This document shows, piece by piece, positions 2,431-58,543 of a DNA stretch of 60,000 nucleotides (its first letter is position 1; each line of letters opens with the position of its first letter). This DNA comes from Amphiscolops sp. MND2022 (taxonomy: Eukaryota): assembly GCA_964187785.1 (NCBI GenBank), contig OZ076409.1, positions 54,190,001 to 54,250,000 on the forward strand, written 5' to 3'. The notes beneath the pieces are model-generated. The model saw only the letters and a program-made list of their open reading frames with translations, ran no database searches and was not told where the DNA came from. A program made the position numbers and the translations under genes.

Positions 2431-2587
2431 TTAACGACCAAATGATATAGTTTATGTTTTATATTTCAAAGAGCAAGTTTTATTATTTTTCGCCCATATT
2501 TCATATGGGAAAGGAAAACATTTAACTCAAACGGGTTTTTTTCACAAAATTTGCCAACCACCAAATTTATATTTAACTTCAAGGGTG

Positions 2588-3317
2588 TGTAACGGCAAGC
2601 TCTGGTACAGCAACATCAGCCGACATGTTTAGAAAATTTTGTCAAAAATTCGTTCAAATTTGACGTGGCACTCAAACATGCTCAAGACGAAGTACCTGCC
2701 AAAAAAAGCACCCCAGAAAAGCAGAAATCGCCGCTCGCGACGAACAAGCACCGGAGACGACAAAAAAGACGTCCCCGACGCATACAGAACACGGTATTGT
2801 GTCAATCTCTAGGAGATATCCATTACTACAGTAAAGGAAACCAGTGTTCCAGATGTTCGCCTGAGTATCCCTGCGGTATCCTGTGTGGCAACTAGCGCTA
2901 GCGCTGGGAAGCTGAGGTCAACTTTCATCAAATGACTCTGAACTCTTGATTTCTTGTTGTATTTTTCGATGTGGTAAATTAATATGCTCGAGAGCTGTTG
3001 TTTAACATCTGTTTATCCCATTTGGCGATTTTATCAGATTCTCCAATATTACGGTTCAACCTTCATCGATTTTCAGCCCAATTTTTAAAGGCTAGTTGAG
3101 CAGTGGTCTTGAGTCTTGCAAGATGCCTGTTACTTTTAGCAGTTACAGACTAGGACCAGGCCAGAGAGCGTCCTACAAGACGGTTCCCCCACCTTGGGAC
3201 TGGCTCCTTCGGAGGGAAAATGAGCTAGGGCCGCGGAGATCCAGGTCCCAGATTATATTCGCTGTTCTAGTTCCTCCACTCTACGTTGCGGTTCAAGCGC
3301 CAGCGCTTATCGTTACA
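2588..3317 (+). repeat. 5' LTR (730 bp)
   Basis: TGTAACG...CGTTACA terminal inverted repeat; direct repeat of 20746-21477. Confidence 0.97.
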
Positions 3318-3332
3318 TAGAAACTCATTTTT

Positions 3333-3350
3333 TGGCGACCACAGAGGGAT
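3333..3350 (+). promoter_or_regulatory. Primer-binding site, tRNA-Arg-like
   Basis: TGGCGACCACAGAGGGAT resembles the complement of the eukaryotic tRNA-Arg(TCG) 3' end (TGGCGACCACGAAGGGA). It is conserved in the minus-strand copies near 250-267 and 1420-1437. Confidence 0.75.
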
Positions 3351-4489
3351 CGTCTTGGGAAGCTTTCCCTAGCGGTTTTTAAAAGATCTGGCCCCCTGGT
3401 ATTCAGCGCCAAGCCCGTTTTCGACTCTGGACAGGAGAGAAGAGCAGAGTTTTACCTCTTTTTAGTCGTATTACGTCTTACTGGAACTGGGAGAGGCGTT
3501 GAACCAGAGAAAATGCCGAAGAAAGCGTGTTTTCAGGTGCGAAAATGGTATTTTTGGGCATTTTAGAAGGAAATCGCTCTTTATGTGTGATGTGTTGTGT
3601 ACCCATCAGCGGGTACCTTTTGGCAGGTGTAGAGGACCGTAGCACGTGGCTACGGGTGTCTAACAGGTTTTTTGAGCTTTTTTCAGCCATTTTATGCCAT
3701 GCAAGAGGGTAACGGATGGATGGTTGACCATGCTCCAGCGAGGCGAAGGAGGGGACAAATCTTGTGTAGCCTACTTCCTATTCCCATTTCTCGTGGAGAC
3801 GTCCTAGAGGCATGGTTTTTGGTGGACAGCAAGTACAACGACAGACGGTGCTAATGGTCCCACTCGCGTGTTTCTATCTGGTCTAGATGTGGAGAAATAA
3901 CGTGGTGAAGATGCACCCCCTATGACCAGATGAGTCGCTCAGATGGAGTATGGTTGGCGAAAATTTTGAAAATACACCTCTTTCGATGGAGAATCGTTGG
4001 TGCAGTTGGTGCAGGTCAGTGACGTTCTACTATAAATGTAACGACACCCTACGAAGTGCTTTTCTGCGAAAAAGATAGCACTTGGAAAAAAAAACCTCAT
4101 TTTGTGTTTTTTTTGGTGTTTTTCTTGGTTTCGAGCACTAGTGCTCACAGAAGCCAAGAAAGTTTGGTAGGAAGTGTTGAAAAAGCAGCTGCAAGGCTCG
4201 AGGAAGCCGGCACAAGGCACGAAAGGCGAGGTTGAAGCCTTTGATTGTGATAAAAGTGCCAATTTGATGCCGAAAAATGTGAAAAAAGTGGAAATTTGGC
4301 CAAAAAGGCACCCAAAATGTAAACGTACACGAGTGTGGAAGTGTAAAATGACAGTGTACGGCACTATCCCAAGTGTAGTTGACCCTCAGGATACTAATTG
4401 CAACTTTTGTAGCGGACTCAGGCAGCCTGGGGCTGATACAGTGCGAAAAACTTGTGATTTTTGGCATTTCTGAGTAGAGAAAGTGCATT

Positions 4490-4830
4490 AACCAAAAACA
4501 CCCAGAGCAAAGCTTATTCGAAAAGAGCGGGCTCGAGCGCTCTCATTTTCGATTGTAGCAGCAAAAACGACGCGTTGAGGTGAAAACCGCATGCAAAAAT
4601 TCCTTTTCAGCGTTGAGAAAAGTTGAAAAACCTTGATTTTTGGCCAGTTTCAGGAGTGTCAAAGCGCATCATTAAAACCTCTGGGGCACTCAGTGTTTTC
4701 GAGACCGGGGAGCCCGCGCGCACCTATTTTCTGTTTTTAAAATACAAACAACGCATTGTGGTGAAAACCGCGTGCAAAAATTCGTTTTCAGTGCTGAGAA
4801 AAGTGGAAAAACGCACTGAATTTGGTCAAT
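4490..4830 (+). repeat. Diverged ~181-bp tandem duplication in the leader
   Basis: gtgaaaaccgc(a/g)tgcaaaaattc...gagaaaagt at 4580 and 4761. Confidence 0.75.
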
Positions 4831-6046
4831 TTTCCACAAAACCGGACTGTCTCTGAGCTAGGGTCGGGTCATCGATTCCTGAACCCTAGCCAAAAAGTGG
4901 TTGCATTTTCGTAACCATTACAAAACTTAACGTTAGTGCCGAAATTTTGACGAGCGTATCGCTCACCAAAGTCGAGAAAAGCCCTCTGACGTTTCGACTT
5001 CAGAAAAGCACATAAAAGCCAAAAAAATCCAAAACTACAGGACTGTCAGTGCCTTATACCTAACGGGCACAACCAATTGAGGGTTTATCCCAGTGCTACG
5101 GATAGTGGGGCAACACGTTGGTCCGATTTTGCCCGCCGTATCACTTCCTGAGGTGATCCTCTTGGTCAAATTGTGAAAAAAGTCGTCAAAAACAGTGTTT
5201 TTTCGTGTACAACGTGCATAGTGGGTCGAAACCTCAAATAAGCGCTCGCGCTTCAATTCGACCATTTTAGTGGCATTGTAGGTGCCTGCTGGCATAGACT
5301 ACCAAGTTTGGTGCCGATCTGTCTGATACTTGTCGAGAAAATAGAAAAAACGTGGAGCCCAAAAAGGTGTCCAAAAAGGCAGTTTTTTCTTAATTTTTCC
5401 AAGTAACCCGGGTACCTCAGCCGAAGGGTGGGGCTATATTGCAGCCCACCATTGTAACTTGTGCTAGCTCTTACGTTGCTGCAGAGAATTTGAGCTTGCT
5501 AGCTTTTTCCAGTGGACCGCAATCTTGAAAAAGACGTGAAAAACAGTGTATTTCGGTACATAGTGGTACCGCACGTCTGTACCTAGGTGAAACTGTGTAG
5601 AAGGGGCGCAGCTCAAAACTGTGTTCGTTTTCGTAAACCTACGTGTACCTAAGATCTGCTGGTCAATTTTGGGCTTGATACCGCGCTTCTAGCGCACACA
5701 CGAGCCTGTTGAGTGTTGTTGTGCGATTTTTGGAAAATCCAAAATTTCTTCGAAATTCTTCCTGTGAGTGACCGGAGACTCTTGGCCCTAAACCAGGTTG
5801 ATTTTCTAGCCCAGTGTGCTTGTGGGAAAACGCTGTGCAATTTTGAACAGCCTACGAGCTCTGGAACGTGTTTCGAAAAATCTAGAACGTTGAATACCAT
5901 CAAAATTCTTAAGTGCTCACCGGGACGACCAAGGGATCAGCTTCGAATTGAAGACCCTGGTGCGTTCGGCGACCCAATTTGAGTCTTCCGAGTAATCGTG
6001 AGCGGTATCTCGATCGCTATTGATAAACGCGTTGGCCACCGAACCG

Positions 6047-9000
6047 ATGGCGGTATCCCATACCGGTTCACAATCATGGGTCACGATAGAGGGTTCGCGT
6101 TTTTCAGACGACATGTCTGACGAAGTCACTATCGAACAACAGCGAAAAGAGGATTTGGCCGCTATGGTTCTTCCCTCAGAGAACTCCAGTGTTGCTGAAA
6201 ATTCACGCCAAACCGAGCAGTGGGTCGACGAAACTTGCCGCGATAGAGCCAATGAAGTGGAAGAGGGCTGGCCCAATTCGAATGCAACCGATGAACTGGC
6301 GGCTGAGGAAGGGTGCTCGCGCGCACCCCCGGCTGGCGAAAGACAACTTGGCTCACAAACCGACATGGAGCAGGACCTCACTTACGTGGGAGGCATGAGT
6401 TACGCGCGACGGCGGGGACTCGGGACCAATCGAGGACCTACCCGGGTCTGTGCCTACGGGAAGCACAAGAAGGTACGACCACCTATACTACAGGTAGGTG
6501 AGCCACGTCAAGAGGTATCCCGTGTCAGGAGTATGACAGGCTCATTGGCCTCATCGCAACGGTCTTCAGTATACAAGGCAGCACTATTGGATGCCCAAGC
6601 CGAAACCCAACGGGCCCTAACAGGTCTGGCCAGCACTCGTGCTGAATGCAATGAGCAACATCTTGCCATCGTGGAGAACATTAAAGTGATGCAGACGACG
6701 ATGCGTGAGGGCCTGCAGGTCAGCGATCAATTGCGTACCGCGCAGAATGTGCAAAATGCTCGAGTGGACACATTGGGTCACCGGATAGGAGAGATGAATG
6801 ACACGTTGATGGCTCGCGAGTTGCGCGTGGAAACGCAGATCAACGACTTAAGCAATCAGATGCACACGGTACTCAATGCCATTGATGTCATGAGGCGTGA
6901 GAGGTCACTCCCGTGGCAGCCCAGTGCAAGTGGAGGCGTGCGGAATGGAGGTCCAGTCCGTATCTCGGAGCCGACGTGCCCGAGCCAGGTAGTGAAGTCG
7001 GAACTGCCGAGCGCGCTAAAGCCTAGCACTTCCAGGCCGGCAGTGCCTGCGCCCCGGAAAGATGAAGGAGTAGCCGGAAATTTGGTGATAGCCACGCCTG
7101 AGGCAGAGCGCAAGCCTGCACGAGTGCAGATGAGGGGACATCACGACTCAGCAGAATCATCGATGCCTTCTGCAATCCAGAGCACCACTCGAGATCAAGG
7201 CGTGGACCCGATGTCGACCATCTATCTTGATTCCTCGGTTGAAGTTGACCTATCTAACACCAAGGCAACGCTAGGCTCTCAAACCGAGGGAGCAACGTTT
7301 GCAATTGCCCCTATTTCAATGTCAGGACCAGATTCCATATACTGGACCGCAGACTCGTCAGCCGATCATGGACTGCCCTCGGGCACTCCCTGTGCTAGCA
7401 GCACTCGCAAAAAGGACGAAATCGCCGACCTGTCGATACAAGCCACTCTTGGTAGTCATGACAGGACGCGCGAGGGGGAGGCCAAGGCCGATGAAGGAGA
7501 AGCCATATCCCCCGAGCAGCTGAGATTCACGGCCGCCATATCAAAGGCGATGTCAAAAGAGTTAGCGCCCTTACTCGCCGGCAGAGACTTGGCTCAGGCG
7601 AGGCCCAATGTATATCGCGGGTCCAAAGACGGATCCATTGATGGGTGGATCCTTATTATTCAGAGATACCTGAAAAGAACGCAAACCAAGGTCTCAGCCG
7701 AGGACCAGGCTTGGAGCATCATCGGTCACCTTGAAGGTGAAGCCCGCAACTACATCATTAACAAAGCGGAATCCGAACGTGACACCCCCGAGAAGGTGTT
7801 CGAATTGTTATCCAGCCGCTTTGGCGCTGGAGGAAAACGTATGCAAGTGCGACAAGCTTTCCAGAGCCGCATTCAACAAGAGAAAGAAGACTGGATGCAG
7901 TATTTAGACGCTCTAGAGGGTCTTCGGAGTCAAGGATTCCCACAAGAGGCAATCACCACCAAGCGCTATGAAATCCTCCAGCGCTTCATGGAAGGTGTAC
8001 GAGACCCAGCGCTGAGGCGGGAGCTGGCCATAGTGTATGCCTCGGAAGTCTTCCTGACCGAGCCGCCTACGGTGGAATCCCTCCGCTTTACCACCCGCCA
8101 ATTGCAGCGCAACCGTCCAAAACCTAACCAATTCCCTCAACCCTATGACCCCAGACTAGCAATGAGGTCTCGACCTCATCCCTTCGCGCCACTACCCCCC
8201 AACAAAATGGTGTTACCACAAGGAGTAATGCCTCCCCCACCTGCGAGTAATGCTCCCCCCAATCAAGCAGCAGTGCAGCCTGCGGTACGCCTGCCCGTTG
8301 GCGCGTGCTATAATTGCGGTCAAGCTGGGCAATTTGCCCGGGACTGTCCCACCCGCGATCAAGCTCGCAAACCAGTGGCAGCTCCTGAACCAGAAGGTGT
8401 GAAAGTCACTGCTGAAGACGTAACTGATGGCGTGTTGGAGAGCTATCCAGGCATTCATCAGTGTGCGCACTGTGGAGTCTATGACCATGTGGATGTCCCC
8501 TGTGGTGAGCATTCTGAAGCCCCGAGGCCTAATGATGAATTGGCCTATAATCGATGGCTCGAGGTGGAATCCGCTGGTGTGGCCGCCCACACGGTACCCC
8601 TGGAAGATGATCGCGTATTAATGCTACACCTAGCGGAGCCCCCAGCGTTTCACCCCCCACTGATAGTTACATGTGGGACAAAGCAGATTCAGACGTGCTT
8701 GGAGCCTACAACGTTCGATCCACAAGGGAGAACGTTGATCTCGATTCATCTTATGCTGGCAGCCGAGCAGGTGCGTAGACCAACGCTAACCTTGGCGAAA
8801 CTCTGGGTTGAGCTATCTGTCCTCTATAACCGGATGGAATTGCCCCGCCCAAAACAGTGGCACGTCCCTGGAGAGTCGGAGACCCTGACTACGTACTCGC
8901 CAGTACCAGTCTGTGCAACGATGGACGGCGTGGACGTGAAGTTCGAGGCCTGTGTGGTGGTAGATGTGTTCCCACCCGGCTTATGCTTGGGACCTCAAGA

Positions 9001-10666
9001 GCTGAAATGCTATAATATCAACCACCAAGAACCCACCGGGGAAGCGCGAATAGATGAGCGTGCATCGCTCGTTGTCTCCTTTGTGGTGCCTCATGCAGCA
9101 CCTATCCCACTGCGAGGCCTGGTGGACACTGGTTCCGGAGTATCCATACTAACCTTCTCCGCCTTCAACCGGGTAGTTGCACGGACCGGAGCGGTCCTGA
9201 AACCCTATCAAATTGATTCGTACGCTCCCAATGGGAAGACAATAAAGACTTTCGGGTTGGCTGAGCAGATACGCTTCCAGTTGGGAGGGTATGAACTCGA
9301 AACCAGTTTCGTCGTGGTAGATGACGCAATGGGCGTGGAAGACTTTCTGTTTGGTCGAAACTTCCTCCGTTCCTACCAAGTCTTGGTAGATCTAACCTCC
9401 ATGAAGATAGTGGTGCGAGCACCTGTGAAGCCCGTCTGGCATCATGCACACACCCAGGTAGGTGACGCTTCGTTAACTACCTCCATTACCCTGGACAGTG
9501 ACCTAGTCCTACAGCCTTTCGAGCGTACAGTGGCAAAGGCCAAACTTGTCACCAACGCGCTTGAACCATTAATCTTCCAGACCGTTGCGCTTAACGCCTC
9601 GTTGTCTGATCCCTCATTGCAAAATACCATCTTTTTAGAGGACAGCGTAGCCACTGTCAGTGAGACAGGAACACTGTATGTGAGCCTGGTAAACCTCACC
9701 AGCAACCAGCAGCGTGTACGATGTGGTGCCCACCTAGGCACGGTAGTGCCTGTGTCTCTAGTATACCAGGCTGTGCCCCAAAAGCTGGATGCTACTGTGG
9801 AAGCTGACCACAAAACTGAAGCCGACAACAGTCGAGCAAATTTTGTTTATAAAGTGTACAGTGAAATGAATCTATCCACTGCTTCTGAGTTAACTTCTTC
9901 ATCTGAATTTGAGTTTTTGTCTTCTACGGATCCAAGTGAAGCGGGGCTTTCGGAGCGCGAGATTCGCAAGCGCACCGATCCCGACCTATTGGCCCCGATC
10001 CCTGGGCCCGATTCTCAATTGCAAGAAGTCAAGAACCTCTGGGGCGCTAGCGCCTGCGAGTCCTTAGACAACATTCTTAACGAGTTTGATGACCTATTCA
10101 TGAAACGCAAGGCGGATATTGGTCGCTGTACCATTGCTAAACACACCATAGAGGTAGAGCCTGAGGCGGTACCGCACCGTGAAGGTGCTCGCAGAATGTC
10201 CCCCGAAAAGGCTGAACGAGCCAACCAGGAGGTTCGGAGCTTATTGACCTTAGGGATGATACAACCTTCACTGTCCCCATGGTCAAGTGGTATCGTAAAG
10301 GTAAAAAAGAAAAGCGGGGAGTTACGCTTTTGCTGTGACTTCCGACCGCTGAATGAAGTAACCATTAAGGATGCCTACCCCCTGCCCCGTATCGATGAAA
10401 GCCTGGCGCGACTGGGCAATGCAAAGATCTACACCAGCATAGATCTTGCCTGGGCTTTCTGGCAAATTCTCTTGCGAAAGGCGGACCGCCACAAAACAGC
10501 CTTTGCCTGTGAGTTGGGACTCTTTGAATGGCGAAGAATGCCATTTGGCTTGTGCAATGCATCAGCCACCTTCCAGCGAGCAATAGCGCGAGCGCTGCAA
10601 AAAAATAGTCAATCGCAAAGGCAGCATGGTCATGGCATACATCGACGACATAGTTATAGCAACTGA
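6047..10666 (+). CDS. gag-pol: Gag-Pol part 1: coiled-coil N-terminus, capsid, Zn knuckle, pseudo-protease, aspartic protease, dUTPase-like domain, RT N-half
   Basis: Capsid-like DGWILIIQRYL...LEGEAR; CYNCGQAGQFARDC; LVDTGSGVS; RFCCDFRPLN, YPLPRID, DLAWAFWQ, RMPFGLCNASATFQR. First ATG at 6047. The frame is lost at the A7 run at 10599-10605. Confidence 0.93.
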   Translation: MAVSHTGSQSWVTIEGSRFSDDMSDEVTIEQQRKEDLAAMVLPSENSSVAENSRQTEQWVDETCRDRANEVEEGWPNSNATDELAAEEGCSRAPPAGERQLGSQTDMEQDLTYVGGMSYARRRGLGTNRGPTRVCAYGKHKKVRPPILQVGEPRQEVSRVRSMTGSLASSQRSSVYKAALLDAQAETQRALTGLASTRAECNEQHLAIVENIKVMQTTMREGLQVSDQLRTAQNVQNARVDTLGHRIGEMNDTLMARELRVETQINDLSNQMHTVLNAIDVMRRERSLPWQPSASGGVRNGGPVRISEPTCPSQVVKSELPSALKPSTSRPAVPAPRKDEGVAGNLVIATPEAERKPARVQMRGHHDSAESSMPSAIQSTTRDQGVDPMSTIYLDSSVEVDLSNTKATLGSQTEGATFAIAPISMSGPDSIYWTADSSADHGLPSGTPCASSTRKKDEIADLSIQATLGSHDRTREGEAKADEGEAISPEQLRFTAAISKAMSKELAPLLAGRDLAQARPNVYRGSKDGSIDGWILIIQRYLKRTQTKVSAEDQAWSIIGHLEGEARNYIINKAESERDTPEKVFELLSSRFGAGGKRMQVRQAFQSRIQQEKEDWMQYLDALEGLRSQGFPQEAITTKRYEILQRFMEGVRDPALRRELAIVYASEVFLTEPPTVESLRFTTRQLQRNRPKPNQFPQPYDPRLAMRSRPHPFAPLPPNKMVLPQGVMPPPPASNAPPNQAAVQPAVRLPVGACYNCGQAGQFARDCPTRDQARKPVAAPEPEGVKVTAEDVTDGVLESYPGIHQCAHCGVYDHVDVPCGEHSEAPRPNDELAYNRWLEVESAGVAAHTVPLEDDRVLMLHLAEPPAFHPPLIVTCGTKQIQTCLEPTTFDPQGRTLISIHLMLAAEQVRRPTLTLAKLWVELSVLYNRMELPRPKQWHVPGESETLTTYSPVPVCATMDGVDVKFEACVVVDVFPPGLCLGPQELKCYNINHQEPTGEARIDERASLVVSFVVPHAAPIPLRGLVDTGSGVSILTFSAFNRVVARTGAVLKPYQIDSYAPNGKTIKTFGLAEQIRFQLGGYELETSFVVVDDAMGVEDFLFGRNFLRSYQVLVDLTSMKIVVRAPVKPVWHHAHTQVGDASLTTSITLDSDLVLQPFERTVAKAKLVTNALEPLIFQTVALNASLSDPSLQNTIFLEDSVATVSETGTLYVSLVNLTSNQQRVRCGAHLGTVVPVSLVYQAVPQKLDATVEADHKTEADNSRANFVYKVYSEMNLSTASELTSSSEFEFLSSTDPSEAGLSEREIRKRTDPDLLAPIPGPDSQLQEVKNLWGASACESLDNILNEFDDLFMKRKADIGRCTIAKHTIEVEPEAVPHREGARRMSPEKAERANQEVRSLLTLGMIQPSLSPWSSGIVKVKKKSGELRFCCDFRPLNEVTIKDAYPLPRIDESLARLGNAKIYTSIDLAWAFWQILLRKADRHKTAFACELGLFEWRRMPFGLCNASATFQRAIARALQKNSQSQRQHGHGIHRRHSYSN

Positions 10667-12722
10667 GACTGTAGAAGATCACATGGCGCGTTTGCGCGAG
10701 GTTTTTGAATGCCTCCGCGAAGCTGGCTTCAGGATGCGCGTAGCCAAATGCGACTTCATGAAACCAGAAATCAAATATCTGGGACGCGTGGTCTCAGCAG
10801 AAGGTGTCAAACCGGACCCGAAAGCTGTTGCCAAACTGCGCGATTGGGACATCCCCCGCAACAAAACTGAAATGCAAGGTTTCCTGGGATTCGCTAATTA
10901 TTATCGTGAATTCATCCCGTGGCATGCCAAGCTGGTGGCGCCCCTCCACGCCGTTACGGGACTGAATGCCACATTTGCATGGGGTCCTGACCAACAAAAA
11001 GCCTTCAACGAAATCAAGACAGCATTGATCGAGGCGACTGCGCTCGCGCAGCCTGATTCCGAAGGAGAGTTTGTGCTGGACACCGATGCCAGCGCCGTTG
11101 CCATTTCCGGTATCCTACACCAGTGGCAAGGAGCTCCAGGAGAGCGACGTCTACGACCGATCATATACGGCAGCAAGAAACTGACCACAACCCAAGCCAA
11201 ATATGGGGCACCCAAGCTGGAGATGTTTGCTGCCTACTACTTCATTATCAAGTACCACAGCTACCTTTGTCCCCGAAAGTTCACCCTGAGAGTCTACAAC
11301 CAAGCCCTATCCTGGTTGAAAACCTACTCCACGGACCAAGCATTGATTGGACGTTGGATTATGACACTGGACAGGCATCACTTTCGCGTGGAACACAGAC
11401 CACGAACGCAACACCGCAATGCTGATGGCTTGAGCAAACGAACCAACGATTATCGATGCCGAGAACAGCAGCTTGCGCAGCTGCCAGCTACTGGAGAGCG
11501 TTGGAACTTCCTCTCGGCCGAGGAATTCGACAACCTCCCCATAGCCCCATGGTTCGACCTGCAAGGTCGAATCATTCCAAATCATCCTGACCTACCACCG
11601 CATCTGCAGAACTTGGAGCCTAAGGCTCCTGACCAAGCACTCCGTGTGCTTCGCCGTGTGCAACGAGCGAACAAGCGAGAACGACAGGCGAAGGCGCTAG
11701 CCGCGCCTTTACCGCCTCAGCCTCCACCCGTGCTACAGAAGCACGAGGACTTCTATCCAGACTATCCTGAAGACTGGATAGACGTCACCACTGAGGCGAG
11801 CGAGGATTACCTGCTGCCAACACATGCAGTAAATGTCCCCTCGCGCACCATCTATTCTGTGACGGGAACGAGTAACGCCATGCTACAGAACTCTCCTGGT
11901 GGCGTGCGCGAGTCGATCATGGCCCTCAAGGACATCGACACCGAGCTCCATGAACACACACATACCGTGCACGGGATCAAGGACTTGGTTTTAGCCCAAA
12001 ACCGCGATGTCCATGTGCTAGCGCTGAAAAAGCTCGTGCAGTGTGAATCCCTAGATAACGATGTGTTTCCCGAGAACGTGCGTGAGTTCGCACGTAATTA
12101 CTTCCGCCAGAAAAAGGATCTCTTGTTCATAAACAAGAATGATGTCCTTTGCGTGCAATACTCCCCCACCCAACGCCCACTGCACGAACGTCCGTGCATG
12201 ATCATAATGCCTCAACTGTACCAGCACGAGATTCTGTTCCGTGCGCACGACGCAATGGGACACCAAGGTATCTCAAAAGTGGTAGCTCGAATTCAAGAGC
12301 GCCACACTTGGCCCGGCATACAGCGCAGTGTCGGTCGATACGTCGGCCAATGCCTCACCTGCCAACAAGTACGTGACAAGCCTGGTGACGTACGATTCCA
12401 ATTGAAAAACATTCAGAGTGGCTACTTCAACGAGTTGGTCCAATATGACCACTTAAAAATCTGCCCCTCTGATAACAACAACACTGGCATTTTGGTCATC
12501 ATCGACCATTTCTCTAAATTTGCAGAGGCAGTCCCTTGTAGTCATCATGACTATGACGCAGTGACCACCTCACGATTGCTGCTGCAGAAATGGTTTGCCC
12601 GCCACGGCACCCCCGCTCGCATGCAATCAGACAATGCTCCCAACCTTACTGCTGAAGTCTCTAATGAGTTCCTAAAGGCAGCTCACGTCACTAAGGTGAC
12701 CTCCACTGCCGGACATCCCTGA
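10626..12722 (+). CDS. pol: Gag-Pol part 2: RT C-half, RNase H, long tether, integrase N-terminal part (ends at a premature TGA)
   Basis: YIDD, YLGRVVS, FLGFANYYR; LDTDAS...NADGLS; HHCC (HDAMGHQG...CLTC); YDH and SDN of the DDE triad. Confidence 0.95.
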   Translation: MVMAYIDDIVIATETVEDHMARLREVFECLREAGFRMRVAKCDFMKPEIKYLGRVVSAEGVKPDPKAVAKLRDWDIPRNKTEMQGFLGFANYYREFIPWHAKLVAPLHAVTGLNATFAWGPDQQKAFNEIKTALIEATALAQPDSEGEFVLDTDASAVAISGILHQWQGAPGERRLRPIIYGSKKLTTTQAKYGAPKLEMFAAYYFIIKYHSYLCPRKFTLRVYNQALSWLKTYSTDQALIGRWIMTLDRHHFRVEHRPRTQHRNADGLSKRTNDYRCREQQLAQLPATGERWNFLSAEEFDNLPIAPWFDLQGRIIPNHPDLPPHLQNLEPKAPDQALRVLRRVQRANKRERQAKALAAPLPPQPPPVLQKHEDFYPDYPEDWIDVTTEASEDYLLPTHAVNVPSRTIYSVTGTSNAMLQNSPGGVRESIMALKDIDTELHEHTHTVHGIKDLVLAQNRDVHVLALKKLVQCESLDNDVFPENVREFARNYFRQKKDLLFINKNDVLCVQYSPTQRPLHERPCMIIMPQLYQHEILFRAHDAMGHQGISKVVARIQERHTWPGIQRSVGRYVGQCLTCQQVRDKPGDVRFQLKNIQSGYFNELVQYDHLKICPSDNNNTGILVIIDHFSKFAEAVPCSHHDYDAVTTSRLLLQKWFARHGTPARMQSDNAPNLTAEVSNEFLKAAHVTKVTSTAGHP

Positions 12723-15404
12723 ACTCAAGGCTTGGTGGAACGGCAAAACCGCACCCTCTTAACCTTGCTGCGAGTCTTTTGCTCACGTCGCATGCGCGAC
12801 TGGGACCAATGCTTAGATGAAGTAATCGGTGCCTATAATTCCACCAGGCACGCCACTACAGGCTTCTCGCCCTATATGTTAACAAGGGGTGTTGAGAAAG
12901 CAATCCCCCTCACCTTTTTATACCCTGAATTTGCAGCCAAGTCCTTCGACACGCATGAAGCATAGGTGGATCATGTGTTGGCTCGCCAACAAGAAATTCA
13001 CGACTTGGTCCGGCGCAATACGCACCAAGCCCAATTACGCCAAAAATTGAAGTATGATCGTGCTATTCGAGCACGAGCTTACCAGCCAGGAGAGCTTGTC
13101 TGGGTTTTTTGCCGCTACGTGCCGCAAAAAGGCTCTCCCAAACTGATGCGCGCCTGGCGTGGCCCGCACAAAATAGTACAAGTCTTTCAAGAAGGACGTG
13201 TCTACGCATTGGACACAGGCCAAAAGGTTCATTTTGAGCGCCTGAAACCTCATCATAGTGGGCCCCTTGAGCTCGCCACCGCGCAAGCGGACAGCGGCGA
13301 AATAGTGGTACTCATGGACCCTGACCCTGAACGTTCTGTTGAAGCAGTTGACGACGATAAGTCCCAGCCTTCATATAAAACTGAACAACTACTTTCAGAA
13401 GCATCTGACGTGTCCTTGCCTTCGCGCAAGCAACATTGGATGGATACCCGTCTGCGCACAAAGTTACGTGCTGGAGGTTCCCGCATGCACTACCAGCAAT
13501 TCGACTACTCAACTTCGGGCACTGACGACGAGTTGTCCGAAATCATGCTACCGGTACCTCCTGATCCCGTTGATGCTGATCGCAGGGAGCCCGAACCCCA
13601 ACTCCCTTCAGACCAATCAATATCACCTACCCATCATCTGCCTCAACTATTCTCCGACCATGAGCGCGCGCGCTCTCCGTCACCACGAATATCCTCTCCC
13701 GAAAAACAGCCCTCCTTACTGAGAACATCGGCCCCACTACTGACAAATCCATCACTGACGAGTTTCCTCAACAACTATCCCATTTGGCCGGCCGCTCCTT
13801 CCCTTCCTCTGAAATCCGCCACTGAGGATGACGACGCTCAGTCCAATGTCCCTACTCTTCCCACAACATTGCCCGGAGCGGGGACCGCTCCTTTTTTCAA
13901 AAGGGGGAGGGGGAGACCACCCAAAACGCGAAAAAGGCTGGTCAGAGCGAAGGCAAGAACGAGGAAGAAAGAAACAACAACAATAATGCCGTCGGAAACA
14001 GTAATACCGACCGAGACTTCTGAGGTTCCCCGATACCAGCTGAGAAGCAGGCGGCAGCCACGCTATAAGTGCGGGACCTGTGGGCTGCGAGACTGTGTTT
14101 GCTTGCTAGCCGTCAATGAGAACCGGAGGGTTCCCACTGGAGCCCGGGGAGTCCCTCCAGAGCGGGGAGAAAATCTAGTACATCGCCTTACGGTGAGAGC
14201 TGAAAAGACTTATTCCTCCCTGGAACGACACGGAGACCATCCCGTGGATACTATTATGGAAAAGTTATCACTACCTGGAGTAGCGAAGGCCCCATGTCCT
14301 CGATTTAAGGAGTGGACTAGCGACGGAAAAGGGTTAGAGTTCACCCTCGCAACGGTGATGCCCCCAGTACCCAGCAATATTGCGTTTGGATCCTTCAACT
14401 TCGAACGGGAGACTGTGCAAATGGTCCGATGCATCACCGGTGATCTTCTCTGTGACAAATACGGAATTCACGTGGATCTGGGCGGAGTATACAGCCCAGC
14501 GCCGCACTGGTGTTTGCTGGTCACTGCTCCACGAGTGGAGGCAATAGTGGAACCATTGCACCTGCTGTCCTTCTTGGAAGGTCTGAGGACCCTCACTACC
14601 GCGGACTTGATACTTTGCTTCCACATCATAGACTGGTATCGTGGCAAAGTGAAATTCGCGAGGTGGTTGGAGCTGATCATCACTTGTTTCCCCAATTATC
14701 CTCGCATTAGATTGCTGGACGAGTGGACTCATACTTTCGAGATTCCGCTTCCTCCGAAAGCCGTTTTGAGCACCCTAGACACATGGGTTAGGGCGGGCAG
14801 TGATAATCGAGCGATGCCACGCTCGGTATGGCAAGACCTGGCTGCAATCCAGGGGCGTACGCCCCGCGTATGCTTGCCTGCCGACAATGGGCCGGGGAGA
14901 GAGATTATCTACCCGGGAATCCTGCATCCAGCCCCAACAGAGCACCTCTCATATGATGTGACTGATTTTCTTCAAGTAGAAGGTGATATGGTGTTAGCGT
15001 GTCCCGCTGACCTAGAGACCAACTCAGCTGCCCTACGGTACGTGCTACGAGAATGCGGCAAGGAGAACGTATTCTCCTTACGTCCTAAGGTGGGGGAGAT
15101 TCTCACCATTCCTCCCGATATCAACCCAAACCCCAATCAGAGTATTCACTTGCTAATAATCAGAGTAAACCAGCGTGCGCCGCTGCTCGCAGACGACTAC
15201 CTACGTTGTATGACGCACTTGATACAGCGTTTGATGGAGAAGGGATCCACGAGGGTCCACCTACCTATACTGGATCCAGAGCGACCCGCCCTCTCATTGG
15301 TAAACTTATACCATACCCTAACGAATTTGCTGGAGGGCACTGGCATTCACGTAGTGCTGCATAACCGCGTGTATGTGTCCATTCTGAACATAGGGCTGGA
15401 GTAG
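12723..15404 (+). pseudogene. pol: Gag-Pol part 3: integrase C-terminus plus long extension (AT-hook, Cys motif, two macrodomain-like domains); in-frame stop at 12963-12965
   Basis: VERQNRTL, YNSTRH...GFSPY and the GPY/F-like WRGPHKI; KRGRGRPPK; CGTCGLRDCVC. Same frame as part 2 across TGA 12720 and TAG 12963. Confidence 0.9.
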
Positions 15405-15662
15405 CCCGCCCAAAACGCTTTTTGTTGCCCCCCCCCCTATTTAATTTACCCACCCCGATAATCGTTATACCTGGGAGGAAGTGTTAAACCATCCCATGAA
15501 ATGATTACATTGTAACGTAGCGCTAAATAACTTCTATCTTTATGTTGTAATTAGTTAGTTGAACTACAATTTAAACTTGTTGCGGTTCCCCCATGGAACC
15601 ATCTTTGTACTATTGTAGCTGAATGATGAGCCTTAAGCTCCCCCCACAATGCACCTAGTAAG

Positions 15663-15683
15663 CCTAACGGTGATCCTTTTTAG
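15663..15683 (+). promoter_or_regulatory. Putative branch point and 3' splice acceptor for ORF3
   Basis: CCTAAC...CCTTTTTAG ending 12 nt before the ORF3 ATG. Confidence 0.6.
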
Positions 15684-15695
15684 AACTATGATATA

Positions 15696-18600
15696 ATGGC
15701 TTATTACCCCAACAACACGGTACCTATTTCCACGACGGGACCTCACGCCAATAGGCCTCAAGAATTGCCTGCGCGAGCGCAGAGGACTAATCAAGTCCAA
15801 TACGTAGAAGAGCGATTGAGGAACGGCCTCTCACCGTTAGCGGTAGCGGGCGTGGCCGCCCTACTTACCCAACTAGACACAATGCAGACGCTGCCGGGCG
15901 TATCCGTGTCTCTGGTGACGGAAGTAGCCGGTTACCGTCGCACCCTAACCTGCCAAAACAATGCGTGGGATGGCCACGATCTGACGCACCAGTTCCTGGA
16001 TGAACGTTCTACCACAATGCTCGGGCCCAGCCAAGGCACGAGATTCGAGCAAGAAGCCTCACTGTGTATGGTGCCTGCCAGCGTAGCAACAATGCCTCCT
16101 CCTCAGATGGTCGCACTGCCCCCACCAGCACCAAATCCAGTACCAATGACGCCAACTTATTCCGGTTCGCCTGCCTTTGGAACCTCATATCGAGCACCAC
16201 ACATGGTACTGCAAACCACTACTAATGCACCAGTCTCTGATCGGGATCCCTCGGGGTCCCGGTTACCACCCATACCCAACCCAGAGCTGACGGGAAGGAG
16301 TACCAGCGAACAGGCCGTAATTGTGGCCTTGCAAGCAGTGGCGAACTATCCCAACTCCACCGATTTCGTCCGTGCCGTGGAGCAGAGAATCCCTGGTTTA
16401 GCCACGTATCTGCAAGCTGCTGCTCAGCCCGCGGGCTGTGACCCTCCTGCTCCCCTAGTCGAAACGGCATCTATGGATATGGAAATTGTCGCTGGACCGA
16501 GTAACAGCGCAAGCGCTGCCTCTGGCACACGAGAAGAAGCGGGGAGAAAGCGGCTAACTGAAGAAACTGTCTCAGTTACCCCAGCTGGCTCGGTAACCGA
16601 GAGCCCAACTAGTCGTCCCCCTCCCGACAAGCGCGCTGATGTACCTCGGCCCCAGCTGAAGAGTGTGGTCATCCCTAGGCCCCCGTACCGGGTAGGTCAT
16701 CTAGGCCGAAGCGCACCTCAAATGTCTTTAGCAGACGCGATCGAACAGTATGGAGACCCGGATGCAGGCTCGGAAGTGAGCTCTGTGCCCTCGGGCATCA
16801 ATCCAATAGATATGTCCCTGGAGATACCTGAGACGGTGGAGGAAGCCCATCCTCCAGCTTTCCTCCCTCCATCTGACGACGTATCCGGCTCAGTAGTCAC
16901 CAATGATAGCAAACGCATTTGGATAGCGGCTGAGCATCTCTACCCCAGTCAATGCGCTATCAAGAAAAGGACCCCTCCAACTGAAACGGAGCAAAAGGAG
17001 ATCAACCGGACAACGATACCGGCGCAAGTCACGCGTTCGCTCCGCCCCCGTGACGCAGACATGTCGGAGCAGGCTTGGGAACAGCGTGCTCGAGAGCAGC
17101 TGCCTATGACAACCAACGATTACATGGCGCCCCTGCAACACAATATCACTGAGCAATTCCCCGCACGGTATGTGTTGCGAGAAGGTGAGACATGGGAGGC
17201 GAACGCCCGTTACGCTCGCAACCTGAGATCTTTGAAACCCCTATTGAAAGCAGCTCTGCAGCGCGCGCGCTACTGCATGGCAGTTGATTCTACTTGCCGA
17301 AGTGACCTCCCTATTGACAATTTAATGCCTGACGTGCTGGTGCTAACTATGCCCCTGTCTCGCTTCGCTGAGGTCGCTGAGATGGTTGGAGCCATATACG
17401 ATCCAAACTTAAGAGGATCACAAAAGGAACCACCCCCACAGCGAGTGATCTTTGCCAATCTTCTTGATCACATGGCTTGCGAAGGATTGCTGCACGACCT
17501 GGACGCCATAATGTCCAATGTCCGACGACTTGGAGACATTGACGCCCTGGTAAATGAGGTGGTCGGTGCAATGGAACGTGCCGCAGGGATCCTTCGGGGT
17601 CGTCTGGGAGCGCTCGCGCTCTTTGTATCCCCACCAGGATTCATGTATTGGCCACGAAGTCTGCAGCAGTTCGTCTACATTCTGCTGGAGGTGTGCAAGG
17701 CGCGCAGAGTCGAATTCGCCATCTGTGCACCGAACTTGCGCGTGGACCGAGAGGACCTGCGCCCAGATACCTTATCGTATCCAGCCTTCTTTGCCGCCGT
17801 ATCTAGAGCGCTTGTGGCTATAGAACGCTCGGGAAACGCCCAGCTAACCATTGACGATGCTATCCTCTATGATTATGGAATGCGGATGGGCAGATTGGCC
17901 TTTGACCTTGACGGCAACCGCATTGCCCGAGAATCTAATGTAACCGAACGAGAGGCTGTTCGCCGGTATAATTGGCTAGTGCGAAGAGATAAAGAAATCC
18001 CAGTGCGCGCAGAATTAGCCGACCTGACAAAACAAATTGGTGCATGGCCTGCAGCGCGCACCGTCGAGAGAACAATTCCTCAGATCCACTTCGCCTCGGG
18101 AATCGAGCCCGTGAAGCTGCCTGTAGGGCTGCGGTGTATCGTAGCAATGGAAGCAACAAACCTGAAAGCAGAAGTCGACGCCGCAGCCACCACTTATGCT
18201 TATTGGTACCAGACTAGGTTTGCCACCAGAACTCTGGCAGAAGTAGCTCGAGAGCTCAATTGTCCATTGGAAGCCTTCTGTACCAGTCTTGGTCTAGGAT
18301 GGAACCTAGAGGTACTAACTTCTGAGTTCTCGCTGACCTCTACGCAAACGGACAAGCTGCTAGAAACAATTGGAGAGGCAACCGTCGGAGAAATACTAGC
18401 GCTCGCGCTAGCGATGGGCCCAACCAAGTTTGTAGCCGGACCACTGGCCTTTTTAGTCGACATAGTAATTGCCTGCGACCTCACCGTGTTCTACAGCTAC
18501 TTGGTCCTGGCACAAGGACAACTACGCAGCCTGACCCGTTGGGGACACTTGATGACTTCCAAAGACCAGCAAGACTATTCCGCCCAACTGGAGCGCATGC

Positions 18601-20003
18601 GTGCGTCAATCCAGCACTGGCTAAACTCCACCCTGGTGTTCGCCTCTGGCCTATTCGTGGGCGCAGACCAATCCCAACCACTACATAACTCCGACCAGCA
18701 GATCTCACGGGAAACGGCAGGATTCCCCATGCCGCAGCAGATTGCAGATCTCACCCTGGCTGAAGTAGAAGATTTTGTGGCAGCAATGGCTCCTGTCTTG
18801 GCCCCTATCTTTGGCGCAGTGGGCGTGTGCCGATACCCAACAAAACCATTGGCAACAGCCGTCCAAGTGCACATGGCCTCCTTCAGTACCTACCTGCGGG
18901 GCCATCCCTCACTGGCGTATCCAAGGGTAATACATGCAGTGCTGAGTGGTGAGGTGCCGCATGGGTACACGACCATAAAATCCGAAAGAGAGTTGGAGGA
19001 GAACCTGATGGGTTTGCTGCGCGCGCGCACCAGGAATGCATGTCCTCTACCCCGAGAGCATGGACCTGTGAACTGGTATTCCGCACCTCTCAGTTTGGAA
19101 GGGGTCCCCTTTAGGTTCCCCTGGAGTCAAGAGTTCATAAGGAAGGCGATTCGCGCCAGCACTAGTGCTGGTCCACCTGTAGACCCTTTATACTGCTTCA
19201 AATGCATCGCCTTCCCAAACCGCTATTGGAAGGAGCCGTTAGGTTGGCCCAGGGCAAAACCCGTTGGACGCGCCCCAGAGGTGTTCAACCGCCAAATCCA
19301 ACACTTGGAGTCAGCCCAGATCCCAGGATTGATTGAAGGCGCTGCTCAGATCAGGCAGAGGAATCTTCAATCCCGCGTTATCCCGTTCCCCAGGAAGTCG
19401 GCATGGAAACCCACGGGAAAGATGACCATGTCTGGAGATATGTCCATCGTCCAGCATGATGAAATAAACTCCGTGTTGGGCTCAACAGAACGTGCGAGAT
19501 GGGAAGAGTACTGTCTGGAGTTGGAAATTGCAAGCTTCCCTAAATGGAAGAGAGCTTGCGAGCTCTGGAGCCAATCTGGATGGATCTCACGCCGTGTAGC
19601 ACTAGCGGTAGAAGGTAGAGCAGAGATAGCGAGACAACAGGCGTTCGCGCCTACCATGCTCGCACCAACGATGGCGATGTCTTTGGATCGGCCCATCTCT
19701 CAACCGATCACCATTAACCTTCCAACCCATAACTTGGAGCCAAACCCAGTTGGCCCGTCTTCGTCGCGAACGAGCCCTCAGTCCTCGCAGCAGCAGTCCG
19801 GAGAGCACACTGCCGAATTGACTCCCAATGCAGCACTAGTGCAGCCTATTGCCGAGTTGTCGCTCCCCGAAAGTCCGTCGGACTCTGAAACAGTTACCAC
19901 AGAAGTTTCTCCCCGACGTCGAGCGTCAGTGTCGACTGATAACCCAGAACAGAACCTAGATGATGCCACTAAAGAGCGGACCCGACGCAGTTCAGCTCAA
20001 TAA
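15696..20003 (+). CDS. ORF3 of the retrotransposon, 1435 aa: Pro/Ser-rich ends, central SGNH-hydrolase-like domain, uncharacterised helical region
   Basis: Uninterrupted 4.3-kb ORF between pol and the 3' LTR. SGNH-like blocks at about 17268-17822. No evident signal peptide. Confidence 0.88.
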   Translation: MAYYPNNTVPISTTGPHANRPQELPARAQRTNQVQYVEERLRNGLSPLAVAGVAALLTQLDTMQTLPGVSVSLVTEVAGYRRTLTCQNNAWDGHDLTHQFLDERSTTMLGPSQGTRFEQEASLCMVPASVATMPPPQMVALPPPAPNPVPMTPTYSGSPAFGTSYRAPHMVLQTTTNAPVSDRDPSGSRLPPIPNPELTGRSTSEQAVIVALQAVANYPNSTDFVRAVEQRIPGLATYLQAAAQPAGCDPPAPLVETASMDMEIVAGPSNSASAASGTREEAGRKRLTEETVSVTPAGSVTESPTSRPPPDKRADVPRPQLKSVVIPRPPYRVGHLGRSAPQMSLADAIEQYGDPDAGSEVSSVPSGINPIDMSLEIPETVEEAHPPAFLPPSDDVSGSVVTNDSKRIWIAAEHLYPSQCAIKKRTPPTETEQKEINRTTIPAQVTRSLRPRDADMSEQAWEQRAREQLPMTTNDYMAPLQHNITEQFPARYVLREGETWEANARYARNLRSLKPLLKAALQRARYCMAVDSTCRSDLPIDNLMPDVLVLTMPLSRFAEVAEMVGAIYDPNLRGSQKEPPPQRVIFANLLDHMACEGLLHDLDAIMSNVRRLGDIDALVNEVVGAMERAAGILRGRLGALALFVSPPGFMYWPRSLQQFVYILLEVCKARRVEFAICAPNLRVDREDLRPDTLSYPAFFAAVSRALVAIERSGNAQLTIDDAILYDYGMRMGRLAFDLDGNRIARESNVTEREAVRRYNWLVRRDKEIPVRAELADLTKQIGAWPAARTVERTIPQIHFASGIEPVKLPVGLRCIVAMEATNLKAEVDAAATTYAYWYQTRFATRTLAEVARELNCPLEAFCTSLGLGWNLEVLTSEFSLTSTQTDKLLETIGEATVGEILALALAMGPTKFVAGPLAFLVDIVIACDLTVFYSYLVLAQGQLRSLTRWGHLMTSKDQQDYSAQLERMRASIQHWLNSTLVFASGLFVGADQSQPLHNSDQQISRETAGFPMPQQIADLTLAEVEDFVAAMAPVLAPIFGAVGVCRYPTKPLATAVQVHMASFSTYLRGHPSLAYPRVIHAVLSGEVPHGYTTIKSERELEENLMGLLRARTRNACPLPREHGPVNWYSAPLSLEGVPFRFPWSQEFIRKAIRASTSAGPPVDPLYCFKCIAFPNRYWKEPLGWPRAKPVGRAPEVFNRQIQHLESAQIPGLIEGAAQIRQRNLQSRVIPFPRKSAWKPTGKMTMSGDMSIVQHDEINSVLGSTERARWEEYCLELEIASFPKWKRACELWSQSGWISRRVALAVEGRAEIARQQAFAPTMLAPTMAMSLDRPISQPITINLPTHNLEPNPVGPSSSRTSPQSSQQQSGEHTAELTPNAALVQPIAELSLPESPSDSETVTTEVSPRRRASVSTDNPEQNLDDATKERTRRSSAQ

Positions 20004-20730
20004 ACCCAGCCGCTAATGGGAGCGTTCGCGCTCCCTATACCCTCATAAACTGCCAACAAACAGTGCCTCAAAACTTCTCATCCAGAACGGTGCTATAGTA
20101 CAAAGTGCAATTTTTGTTCTTAGTTATGGTTATATAATTAGTGTACCATTAGTGTTGCACTGGGTGTACGGCCAATAGAGTACGCCTGCCCCAATGGCTT
20201 GAGTGACCAAGCAGAAAGAAAAGAAAACTATTGTTCAAAAAAACTATCATTTTTGTTGCGCACCGTTCGCGGTGTTTTTGAGTTGTCTTATCCCTCTTGA
20301 TTGCGTTTCTTTCTAGTCTAGTGTTCTTCATCAATCTGGTTGTTCACCGTAAGAGCCCCCAAGCTCTAAAAAAAGTTTTTGATCGCCTGAAATGAACTGA
20401 AGACTTGTAGTCTCAAATGGTAAGGAAAAGAAATTTTAGCTGACTTTGGTCGCAAATAGGTTTTTACACAAGTTGACTGCCCAAACGAATTTTAACCGGC
20501 TGAAAACTGTAGCTCTCGAGCTGGTGCTAAAACCTCGTTCATGTTTTGTACGAATAGCTAGGCAGTAAGTTCTTTTTTTTCTCGTAAAAAAACTGCAAAG
20601 TCGACCAAAATTGTTGCCGAAAAACAAGGACTCGTCCTTGTTCCCCGATGTGTGGATGATGGTTCCCAGCAGTCACTGTGATGCAGTTCCCAGACGATCC
20701 AGACGCCGCTTGCCAGGGACGACAAGCCAG

Positions 20731-20745
20731 GAGCCTGGGGAGTGA
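20731..20745 (+). promoter_or_regulatory. Imperfect polypurine tract
   Basis: gagcctggggagtga directly before the TG of the 3' LTR. Confidence 0.6.
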
Positions 20746-21477
20746 TGTAACGGCAAGCTCTGGATGTACAGCAACATCAACCGACATGTTTAGAAAATTT
20801 TGTCAAAAATTCGTTCAAATTTGACGTGGCACTCAAACATGCTCAAGACGAAGTACCTGCCTAAAAAGCACCCCAGAAAAGCAGAAATCGCCGCTCGCGA
20901 CGAACAAGCACCGGAGACGACAAAAAAGACGTCCCCGACGCATACAGAACACGGTATTGTGTCAATCTCTAGGAGATATCCATTACTACAGTAAAGGAAA
21001 CCAGTGTTCCAGATGTTCGCCTGAGTATCCCTGCGGTATCTTGTGTGGCAACTAGCGCTAGCGCTGGGAAGCTGAGGTCAACTTTCATCAAATGACTCTG
21101 AACTCTTGATTTCTTGTTGTATTTTTCGATGTGGTAAATTAATACGCTCGAGAGCTGTTGTTTAACATCTGTTTATCCCATTTGGCGATTTTATCAGATT
21201 CTCCAATATTACGGTTCAACCTTCATCGATTTTCAGCCCAATTTTTAAAGGCTAGTTGAGCAGTGGTCTTGAGTCTTGCAAGATGCCTGTTACTTTTAGC
21301 AGTTACAGACTAGGACCAGGCCAGAGAGCGTCCTACAAGACGGTTCCCCCACCTTGGGACTGGCTCCTTCGGAGGGAAAATGAGCTAGGGCCGCGGAGAT
21401 CCAGGTCCCAGATTATATTCGCTGTTCTAGTTCCTCCACTCTACGCTGCGGTTCAAGCGCCAGCGCTTATCGTTACA
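20746..21477 (+). repeat. 3' LTR (732 bp)
   Basis: Differs from the 5' LTR by about 5 substitutions and 2 small indels (counted by eye). Confidence 0.97.
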
Positions 21478-21559
21478 GTGTTACCCATAGAATTCAACAC
21501 ACATAAATTTAGCTTCATTCCAGATGTATTTGTGGAGATTTCTAGACTTTTTGATTGAC

Positions 21560-58334: not shown

Positions 58335-58543
58335 CAATTTTGAACTGTTTAGCATTTTTTATTCAATTTTGCTCGATTGAATATTTCGATAAAACTTCAG
58401 ATGTCGACTTGTTAATTGTCTTTGTTCCTCCTTATCGTCATGATAAGGAGGAACAAAGACAATTAACAAGTCGACATCTGAGGTTTTATCAAAATATTCA
58501 ATCGAGCAAAATTGAATAAAAAATGCTAAACAGTTCAAAATTG
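58335..58543. repeat. Foldback palindrome, ~102-bp arms, 5-nt loop
   Basis: ...gttcctccttatc-gtcat-gataaggaggaac..., about 2 mismatches. Confidence 0.93.

Follow-up and report, generated by a model that had tools for sequence, protein, structure and literature searches.

A giant Gypsy-like retrotransposon in the genome of Amphiscolops sp. MND2022 with predicted pseudo-enzyme modules

What kind of mobile element extends over almost 19 kb, and are the additional domains that it carries maintained for a purpose? The question is raised by an 18,890-bp long terminal repeat (LTR) retrotransposon at positions 2588-21477 of the window analysed here, a 60,000-nucleotide stretch of the Amphiscolops sp. 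MND2022 genome (assembly GCA_964187785.1, contig OZ076409.1, positions 54,190,001 to 54,250,000 of the forward strand); positions below are those of the window. Working from the letters alone, a first-pass annotation had described a giant 18.9-kb Gypsy element with an intact LTR pair, a 2.7-kb leader, a restored Gag-Pol of roughly 3100 amino acids (aa) and a 1435-aa third open reading frame (ORF3), all of which are borne out. It had also claimed a pseudo-protease, a dUTPase-like domain, tandem macrodomains and an SGNH-like ORF, and these fared unequally. We conclude that this is fairly probably a recently inserted, now broken, autonomous Gypsy-like element that belongs to a distinct clade of giant elements, for which we propose the steps of a mechanism.

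A clade of giant elements

We identified six related families in the genome by protein searches: family A, to which the window copy belongs, and families B, C, D, E and F. The ten copies of families B-E that were retrieved are 18.9-19.3 kb long and keep the segment order and primer site of family A; ORF3 is 80% identical to that of family A in B, 42% in C and 50% in D. The four copies of family F (14.8-15.1 kb) have the same order minus ORF3, so the architecture, which the annotation had proposed to follow in other copies, is retained. LTR pairs of family F are 99.9-100% identical and the frames are open, thus the lineage was recently active.

In a tree of reverse transcriptase (RT) and RNase H (RH) sequences with 39 rows, families A-D and F group with 13 other long polyproteins in a 22-row clade with a support of 100/100 and a long stem. 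The clade lies among Gypsy-type Pol matches, of which few are named references, and the tree carries long-branch warnings and has three named outgroup rows and no GyDB or Repbase references. Within these bounds it supports the earlier proposal of a distinct giant lineage. With the queries used, this genome yielded none of the families of P0095 (family G), P0098 and P0096, although part of these searches began with a more stringent first pass and applied very small E cut-offs. No relatives were found in viral contigs or JGI metagenome contigs.

The ORF3 start region gives 952 first-look candidates in the genome; 40 loci were scored, and these are 97-100% identical. The family-A junction of LTR and leader has 423 exact matches and the clade primer-site pattern 3,557 in the 1.07-Gb genome (reversed controls, 0 in both cases). 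Among 20 family-A copies, taken from the top of the candidate list, none has an uninterrupted Gag-Pol and six have a full-length ORF3, with lesions mostly at differing positions. Two family-A copies on C13 (L028/L048 and L033/L053), 8.6 Mb apart, share flanks on both sides and are a segmental duplication or an assembly duplication.

Other long polyproteins carry cargo of their own. P0101 (3,697 aa), a basal clade member, combines the pseudo-protease with a superfamily-1 helicase (AAA_11/AAA_12) at its C terminus. P0116, P0117 and P0120 are outgroup chromodomain elements with extra enzyme domains according to precomputed Pfam accessions, which we take to be a 3'-5' exonuclease plus NADAR, DNA methylase or NUDIX.

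Structure of the element and its single Gag-Pol frame

The two LTRs are identical at 724 of the 729 positions that align, with terminal TGTAAC..GTTACA, and enclose an internal part of 17.4 kb (Table 1). The TG..CA LTRs, the tRNA primer site, the purine tract, the succession of Gag, protease (PR), RT, RH and integrase (IN) and the GPY/F-type module that follows the integrase core are features of Ty3/Gypsy elements (Metaviridae); Pfam matches for the capsid-like, zinc-knuckle, protease, RT, RNase H and integrase domains occur in Gypsy order. The primer-binding site matches host tRNA-Arg(TCG) genes at their 3' end, and families B-E have the same site.

Gag-Pol of the window copy is in three pieces, separated by a frame break near 10599 and in-frame stops at 12720-12722 and 12963-12965. 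The frame break is private to this copy, as all 18 aligning sister copies differ there (copies 2 and 11 of the 20 did not align across the site). Two of the three family-B copies retain an unbroken natural frame of 3,193 codons, and Gag-Pol is open in all four copies of family F (about 3,000-3,110 codons). Thus, Gag-Pol is one long ORF; these open frames and the private frame break rule out both a programmed frameshift and a division into separate genes for gag and pol.

Table 1. Positions of the features of the element in the window.
Feature	Position	Strand	Details
Left target-site duplication	2585..2587		3 bp, GTG
5' LTR	2588..3317	+	730 bp, TG..CA
Non-coding leader	3318..6046	+	2,729 nt; 24 ATGs, upstream ORFs all short
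Primer-binding site	3333..3350	+	15 nt past LTR; pairs with 3' end of host tRNA-Arg(TCG)
Gag-Pol, single ORF	6047..15404	+	ATG 6047 to stop 15404, about 3,120 codons
Capsid-like domain	7634..8032	+	Pfam PNMA, E 0.00095, under curated cut-off
Zinc knuckle CX2CX4(H)X4C	8303..8350	+	His replaced in window copy, present in sister families
Predicted pseudo-protease	8657..9025	+	retropepsin-like without D-T/S-G motif, 5' of active protease
Active-type retropepsin	9074..9421	+	DTGS
PR-RT spacer	9464..9766	+	possibly dUTPase-fold remnant; dN/dS 0.105
Reverse transcriptase	10034..10784	+	YIDD; frame break inside
RNase H	10980..11372	+	Pfam match
RNase H-integrase spacer	11457..12176	+	240 aa, unknown fold; dN/dS 0.061
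Integrase	12210..13250	+	HHCC, DDE core, GPH form of GPY/F module; two premature stops
CxxC-x4-CxC motif	14070..14102	+	kept in families A-D and F
Macrodomain-like domain A	14385..14738	+	first, more degenerate; dN/dS 0.032
TARG1/DarG-type macrodomain B	14940..15365	+	catalytic Lys and GCGxD loop missing; dN/dS 0.041
Candidate splice acceptor	15664..15683	+	branch-point-like CTAAC, pyrimidine tract, AG; 12 nt 5' of ORF3 ATG
ORF3	15696..20003	+	1,435 aa, open
SGNH-like domain of ORF3	17262..17819	+	block-I Ser present, block-V DxxH missing; dN/dS 0.064
ORF3 core, unknown fold	17829..19583	+	common to ORF3s of distant families; dN/dS 0.043
Purine-rich tract	20730..20745	+	just 5' of 3' LTR
3' LTR	20746..21477	+	732 bp
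Right target-site duplication	21478..21480		3 bp, GTG

Much of the leader is 74-93% identical between families A and B, despite near-saturated synonymous sites. Within it, a 1-kb stretch (4838-5837) is 90-93% identical to family B and is a candidate packaging or translation signal, and a 115-bp repeat at 4517-4812 is spaced at 181 bp. Genes for tRNA-Arg, the same tRNA that primes the element, form a tandem array with a period of ~173 bp at 57.54-57.58 Mb of C9; the pattern has 255 matches genome-wide.

Target-site duplications of three base pairs

Among the 31 insertions of families A-D and F for which both ends were located, target duplications are 3 bp long in 29, and duplications of 4, 5 or 6 bp were found in none. 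The two other cases are a copy with an interrupted 5' LTR and one with a single mismatch. Excluded from the count are three family-A copies, the ends of which were not found by exact strings, and one family-E copy; one of these A copies shows CAC/CAC, with flanks shared with a counted copy. This trait was absent from the first-pass annotation, which also lacks two features described below: the acceptor-like site that precedes ORF3 and the transition across the clade from intact-looking to degenerate domains.

According to the available parts of Kojima (PMC12440569; the other papers cited by PMC number are likewise represented by their available parts), LTR retrotransposons as a rule make duplications of 4-6 bp, and 3 bp is the hallmark of Troyka elements. 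The 4-6-bp duplication typical of Gypsy elements (PMC12440569), which is not a formal definition, is not seen here. Troyka elements are similar to those described here in their 3-bp duplications, in a single Gag-Pol with PR-RT-RH-IN and in having no env (PMC12440569). However, they have CG..CG ends, LTRs of 100-400 bp and internal parts no longer than 7.7 kb, where we find TG..CA, 730 bp and 17.4 kb, and a CX2CX8-10HX4C knuckle with no GPF/Y module, where we find CX2CX4HX4C and GPH/GPF (PMC12440569). The TG..CA ends are seen in families A-D and F, and the GPY/F-type module reads GPH in A, B, C and F and GPF in P0090, P0312, P0096, P0102 and P0101. Membership in Troyka, raised by the 3-bp duplications, is ruled out by ends, sizes, knuckle and GPF/Y. 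The simplest reading of these sequences is that the integrase stagger changed independently of Troyka.

Selection on the accessory segments

Codon comparison of families A and B gives a ratio of nonsynonymous to synonymous divergence (dN/dS) of 0.03-0.16 over all accessory segments with finite dS (0.10-0.16 in low-complexity parts), with dS values of 1.3-3.6 or saturated, which makes the ratios rough; every finite upper bound is below 0.27. Among the six open ORF3 copies of family A, the pairs of which are non-independent, dN/dS is 0.25. We conclude from the codon comparison that purifying selection between families acts on all accessory segments. A neutrally evolving cargo, which the annotation had named among the findings that would overturn its proposal, is ruled out by the A versus B ratios.

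We therefore consider it very improbable that these segments lack a current function, whether as inert spacers or as captured sequences in decay. The lack of a family match in Pfam, NCBIfam and PHROGs, the lost catalytic motifs and the loss of ORF3 in family F would fit such a reading, but dN/dS is far below 1 in every segment, and ORF3 frames stay open between families that are just 42% identical.

A predicted pseudo-protease and the spacer behind the protease

The domain preceding the active-type retropepsin aligns with the clade protease over the C-terminal 37 columns (hhalign, E 3e-5, probability 73; controls 0.35-0.41). Its profile matches several clade members outside the training set, namely P0094/P0312 (E 2e-11 to 5e-11), P0092/98/99, P0102 (E 9e-7) and P0101 (E 1e-4), and none of seven outgroup proteins. 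Thus, a predicted pseudo-protease ahead of the active protease marks the clade of giant elements, and the earlier assignment is well supported by the profile match, the missing D-T/S-G motif and the clade-wide occurrence.

The position of the catalytic Asp is occupied by Glu in families A-F and is non-acidic, as aligned, in P0090 and P0096. Because of this pattern we favour a dead subunit. Alternatively, the seemingly dead domains may be working enzymes with rearranged sites, namely a single-chain, pepsin-like protease that uses Glu and Asp and, in ORF3, a hydrolase that uses Ser and the Asp-His of block III. This alternative, which we regard as decidedly unlikely, draws on the Glu, which all nine family A-F rows share, and on the equal constraint on pseudo-protease and protease (A versus B dN/dS 0.034 and 0.033, respectively), but the motif Thr and Gly are lost, and it does not account for the non-acidic residues of P0090 and P0096.

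For the PR-RT spacer of this element there was no direct match to dUTPase in the libraries searched. The equivalent segment of P0312 matches Herpes_ORF11, a family related to herpesvirus dUTPase (E 0.046), and a fish element of the outgroup has a segment resembling the spacer (E 0.002). Enzymes of the dUTPase family have five catalytic motifs, none of which was recognised in the spacer by eye. It is plausible from these comparisons that the spacer is a dUTPase-fold remnant, in which case it would not be special to the clade; the dUTPase-like domain of the annotation thus persists in a weakened form, through one relative.

Macrodomains at the end of Gag-Pol

Strong sequence and model comparisons indicate that the last Gag-Pol domain (macrodomain B) is of TARG1 type and devoid of the catalytic motifs. 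TARG1 and DarG are the top Foldseek and VIA matches of its model (VIA against TARG1: Z 9.4, root-mean-square deviation 3.6, 116 residues aligned), which comes from the sole predicted structure, with a mean pLDDT of 43 and a bearing on macrodomain B alone. The macrodomain region of this element has no match in Pfam, NCBIfam, PHROGs or PDB sequences; a Macro cluster in the ESM Atlas (0.84) was taken as a lead only. The clade relative P0096, in which TK and GCGMD are preserved, matches human TARG1 (E 1.6e-27), and P0097 likewise has intact-looking TARG1 motifs. In P0090, family G and families A-F these are replaced by R and DWD/DPN/DPE. In TARG1, the Lys is catalytic and the GCGxD loop binds ADP-ribose.

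The domain before it, macrodomain A, is more degenerate. Its profile matches the single macrodomain of family G (E 9e-4) and macrodomain B (hhalign, E 0.001-0.002; controls 0.16-0.49); against the three most TARG1-like rows the value is only E 0.25. A tandem pair is therefore likely on profile evidence, the second member of the pair that the annotation had claimed being strong and the first moderate (E 9e-4 to 2e-3).

Might the accessory modules be a counter-defence kit? The macrodomains would then soak up or shield ADP-ribose signals of a PARP-type defence, and ORF3 would suppress silencing or aid movement from cell to cell. Consistent with this are the TARG1 fold, the presence of macrodomain folds in many proteins of viruses, the intact-looking TARG1 motifs of P0096/97, the intact GDSL domain of family G and the swapping of large C-terminal cargo among clade members, such as the helicase of P0101. 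Membrane action has been proposed for GDSL ORFs of other elements (PMC5408684, PMC6431247, available parts). However, the ADP-ribose-binding loop is replaced by DPE in families A-G, the low and even dN/dS (0.03-0.06) resembles structural constraint rather than an arms race, ORF3 lacks both a signal peptide and a clear anchor in the membrane, and family F does well in its absence. We consider a counter-defence role unlikely, and prefer to see the pair as a non-catalytic binding module. The host-interaction toolkit suggested by the annotation is likewise an overstatement, with ORF3 lacking in every one of the four copies of family F, a young family.

ORF3

ORF3 has no family match in Pfam, NCBIfam, PHROGs or PDB sequences, and the ESM Atlas gave nothing usable. 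An exhaustive profile search returned 658 matches; the best 150 are mostly fragments, eight of them less than 40% identical. The N-terminal hydropathy is negative, indicating no signal peptide, and there is no clear transmembrane helix (best 19-residue window 1.6-1.8 in three families). An errantivirus-like env is ruled out by the missing signal peptide and membrane anchor.

The core of ORF3 is shared with proteins of 2,400-2,950 aa that are linked to family G (profile E 1e-22 to 1e-25; BLASTP E 2e-14 over 659 columns), and in these an intact GDSL domain lies upstream of the shared core. The link of these proteins to family-G pol is through fused products such as P0095, rather than through DNA. 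The intact GDSL domain occurs in P0376, P0441 and P0371, in the last of these three times; elements of the family-G type, with such an ORF3 and a 2,933-aa Gag-Pol, would exceed 20 kb.

Profiles connect the SGNH-like domain of ORF3 to GDSL enzymes by way of family G. It matches the second domain of the family-G proteins with a probability of 99, and that domain matches the intact GDSL with a probability of 45 (E 2e-4), whereas the direct comparison of ORF3 with GDSL (E 0.002-0.005) does not stand out from one of the controls (E 0.0075). We therefore have moderate confidence, on sequence grounds, in the SGNH-like nature proposed by the annotation. Each of the 11 ORF3-type rows spanning block I has its Ser, and the GxND-H of family G reads NxxD-H here, with Asp-His in 10 of 12 rows, as the hydrolase with a rearranged site introduced above would have it. 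None of the 12 rows has the block-V DxxH, although DGIH is present in the adjoining intact GDSL domain of family G, which argues against that hydrolase and for a degenerate domain.

An acceptor-like site before the start codon suggests that ORF3 is made from spliced RNA. It is present in 17 of 20 family-A copies, and comparable sites lie 6-12 nt before the start in families B-E. A strict consensus splice-donor pattern identified no donor in the family-A leader.

ORF3 is missing in all four copies of family F, and no remnant was found in the 3' region of the one copy compared. Family G splits off outside A-F, so that an ancestral ORF3, lost in family F, is the probable history. The recent activity of family F without ORF3 suggests that it is not needed for spread.

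Proposed replication

The reading that we favour is as follows. An LTR-to-LTR RNA would be translated, without frameshift, into one Gag-Pol that is cut by the DTGS protease. Reverse transcription from tRNA-Arg and the purine tract would be followed by integration, for which the integrase probably cuts target DNA with a 3-nt stagger. The pseudo-protease would be a tethered dead subunit that pairs with the adjoining protease and delays processing until particle assembly, a delay that would be needed because the element makes one protease per Gag; dead subunits damp retroviral proteases. The macrodomain pair behind the integrase, in the place of the chromodomain in other Gypsy elements, may tether the complex to chromatin, nucleic acid or protein, and may descend from a TARG1-like eraser that is still intact-looking in distant clade members. 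ORF3, translated from a spliced RNA, would be intracellular, descended from a protein with GDSL and pseudo-SGNH domains, and an accessory dispensable for copying within the genome. We infer these functions of the accessory modules from sequence; both the protease and the integrase by which the element replicates may be modified.

Several of the points given above weigh against this reading: the warnings and few references of the tree, the rough dN/dS ratios, the low pLDDT of the sole model, the missing direct dUTPase match, the indirect link to SGNH enzymes and the lack of a donor under the strict pattern.

Neighbouring sequence

Positions 1-1877 and the 10 kb leftward of the window hold repeated minus-strand units of LTR plus leader, from a sister family ~90% identical to A and B. 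These have no coding matches; 1-715 has a second copy at 1171-1877, and both units are seen again 5.8 kb to the left. A diverged satellite with a period of ~186 bp (21566-23250) begins 90 bp past the 3' LTR. Further along, a BEL/Pao LTR retrotransposon (49473-56493) has 98% identical terminal repeats with 29-bp tandem units, and encodes DUF1759, RT, Peptidase_A17 and integrase over several frames. In the region 58332-59469, a near-perfect hairpin of 105 bp (58332-58546) is followed by a perfect inverted repeat of 343 bp (58577-58919 / 59127-59469). We also identified a 442-codon frame with no Pfam match (40811-42139, minus strand) and a 248-codon frame with a weak Pfam match to a MYND finger (31483-32229, plus strand).

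Relation to known elements and significance

Most modules have precedent in other retroelements. The planarian Burro/GYPSM1 elements are likewise giant and high-copy, with a very long polyprotein with extra domains, a dUTPase-like segment between PR and RT and accessory ORFs (PMC6431247). They are larger (>30 kb, with a 4,900-5,100-aa ORF, compared with 18.9 kb and ~3,120 codons here), and their ORF holds BIR, MATH, BCL2, ankyrin and env-like parts (PMC6431247). We found no Pfam match to BIR, MATH, BCL2, ankyrin or env in this element, although in Burro some of these needed HHpred (PMC6431247). The available parts of the Burro description mention no pseudo-protease, macrodomain or SGNH (PMC6431247).

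Vesta and Juno of bdelloid rotifers have a GDSL/SGNH-type ORF3 behind pol, gained or lost by family, and a dUTPase between PR and RT (PMC5408684). Thus, the annotation's premise that a third ORF is at most env does not hold. Their GDSL keeps the catalytic residues (PMC5408684), in contrast to the degenerate SGNH-like domain (Ser kept, DxxH missing) in the 1,435-aa ORF3, and the predicted pseudo-protease and macrodomains in pol further set the present element apart. A macro domain in an LTR retroelement is known from fish epsilon-like endogenous retroviruses (PMC4977317, citing Basta 2009). Those are retroviruses, whereas here a degenerate TARG1-type pair appears to end a Gypsy-like polyprotein. 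Macrodomain B is alike in fold to TARG1/OARD1 and DarG (PDB 4J5S, 2L8R, 5M31), with the catalytic Lys and GCGxD loop replaced; the available text of PMC4695847 ties TARG1 to no retroelement.

No tandem pseudo-protease or TARG1-type pair in a Gypsy-like pol was found in the literature, with Repbase, GyDB and closed journals outside the search, nor was a 3-bp duplication with TG..CA ends, and a prior Repbase or GyDB entry of these families is possible. The combination, which the annotation did not recognise from described lineages, is without found precedent, though most of its parts are not and Burro is larger. The element is probably an undescribed variant of Gypsy-like elements. More tentatively, and with less than even confidence, we suggest an undescribed major branch of LTR retroelements, present in more than one host genome, with a self-gated or single-chain pepsin-like protease pair, a Troyka-independent 3-nt stagger, a TARG1 eraser and a GDSL esterase duplicated into selected pseudo-enzymes and, maybe, members of more than 20 kb.

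Tools that by default demand 4-6-bp duplications would not call the present elements intact, despite ~3,500 clade primer sites in 1.07 Gb. The 3-bp duplications, with ordinary TG..CA ends, are an apparently independent second case in LTR elements, and bear on how the integrase stagger is set. The tandem of pseudo-protease and protease would be a natural test case for the timing of frameshift-free Gag-Pol processing, and it also bears on the origin of two-lobed aspartic proteases from retropepsins. Finally, the clade holds a graded series of TARG1 and GDSL domains, from intact-looking to degenerate, on which selection appears to continue.

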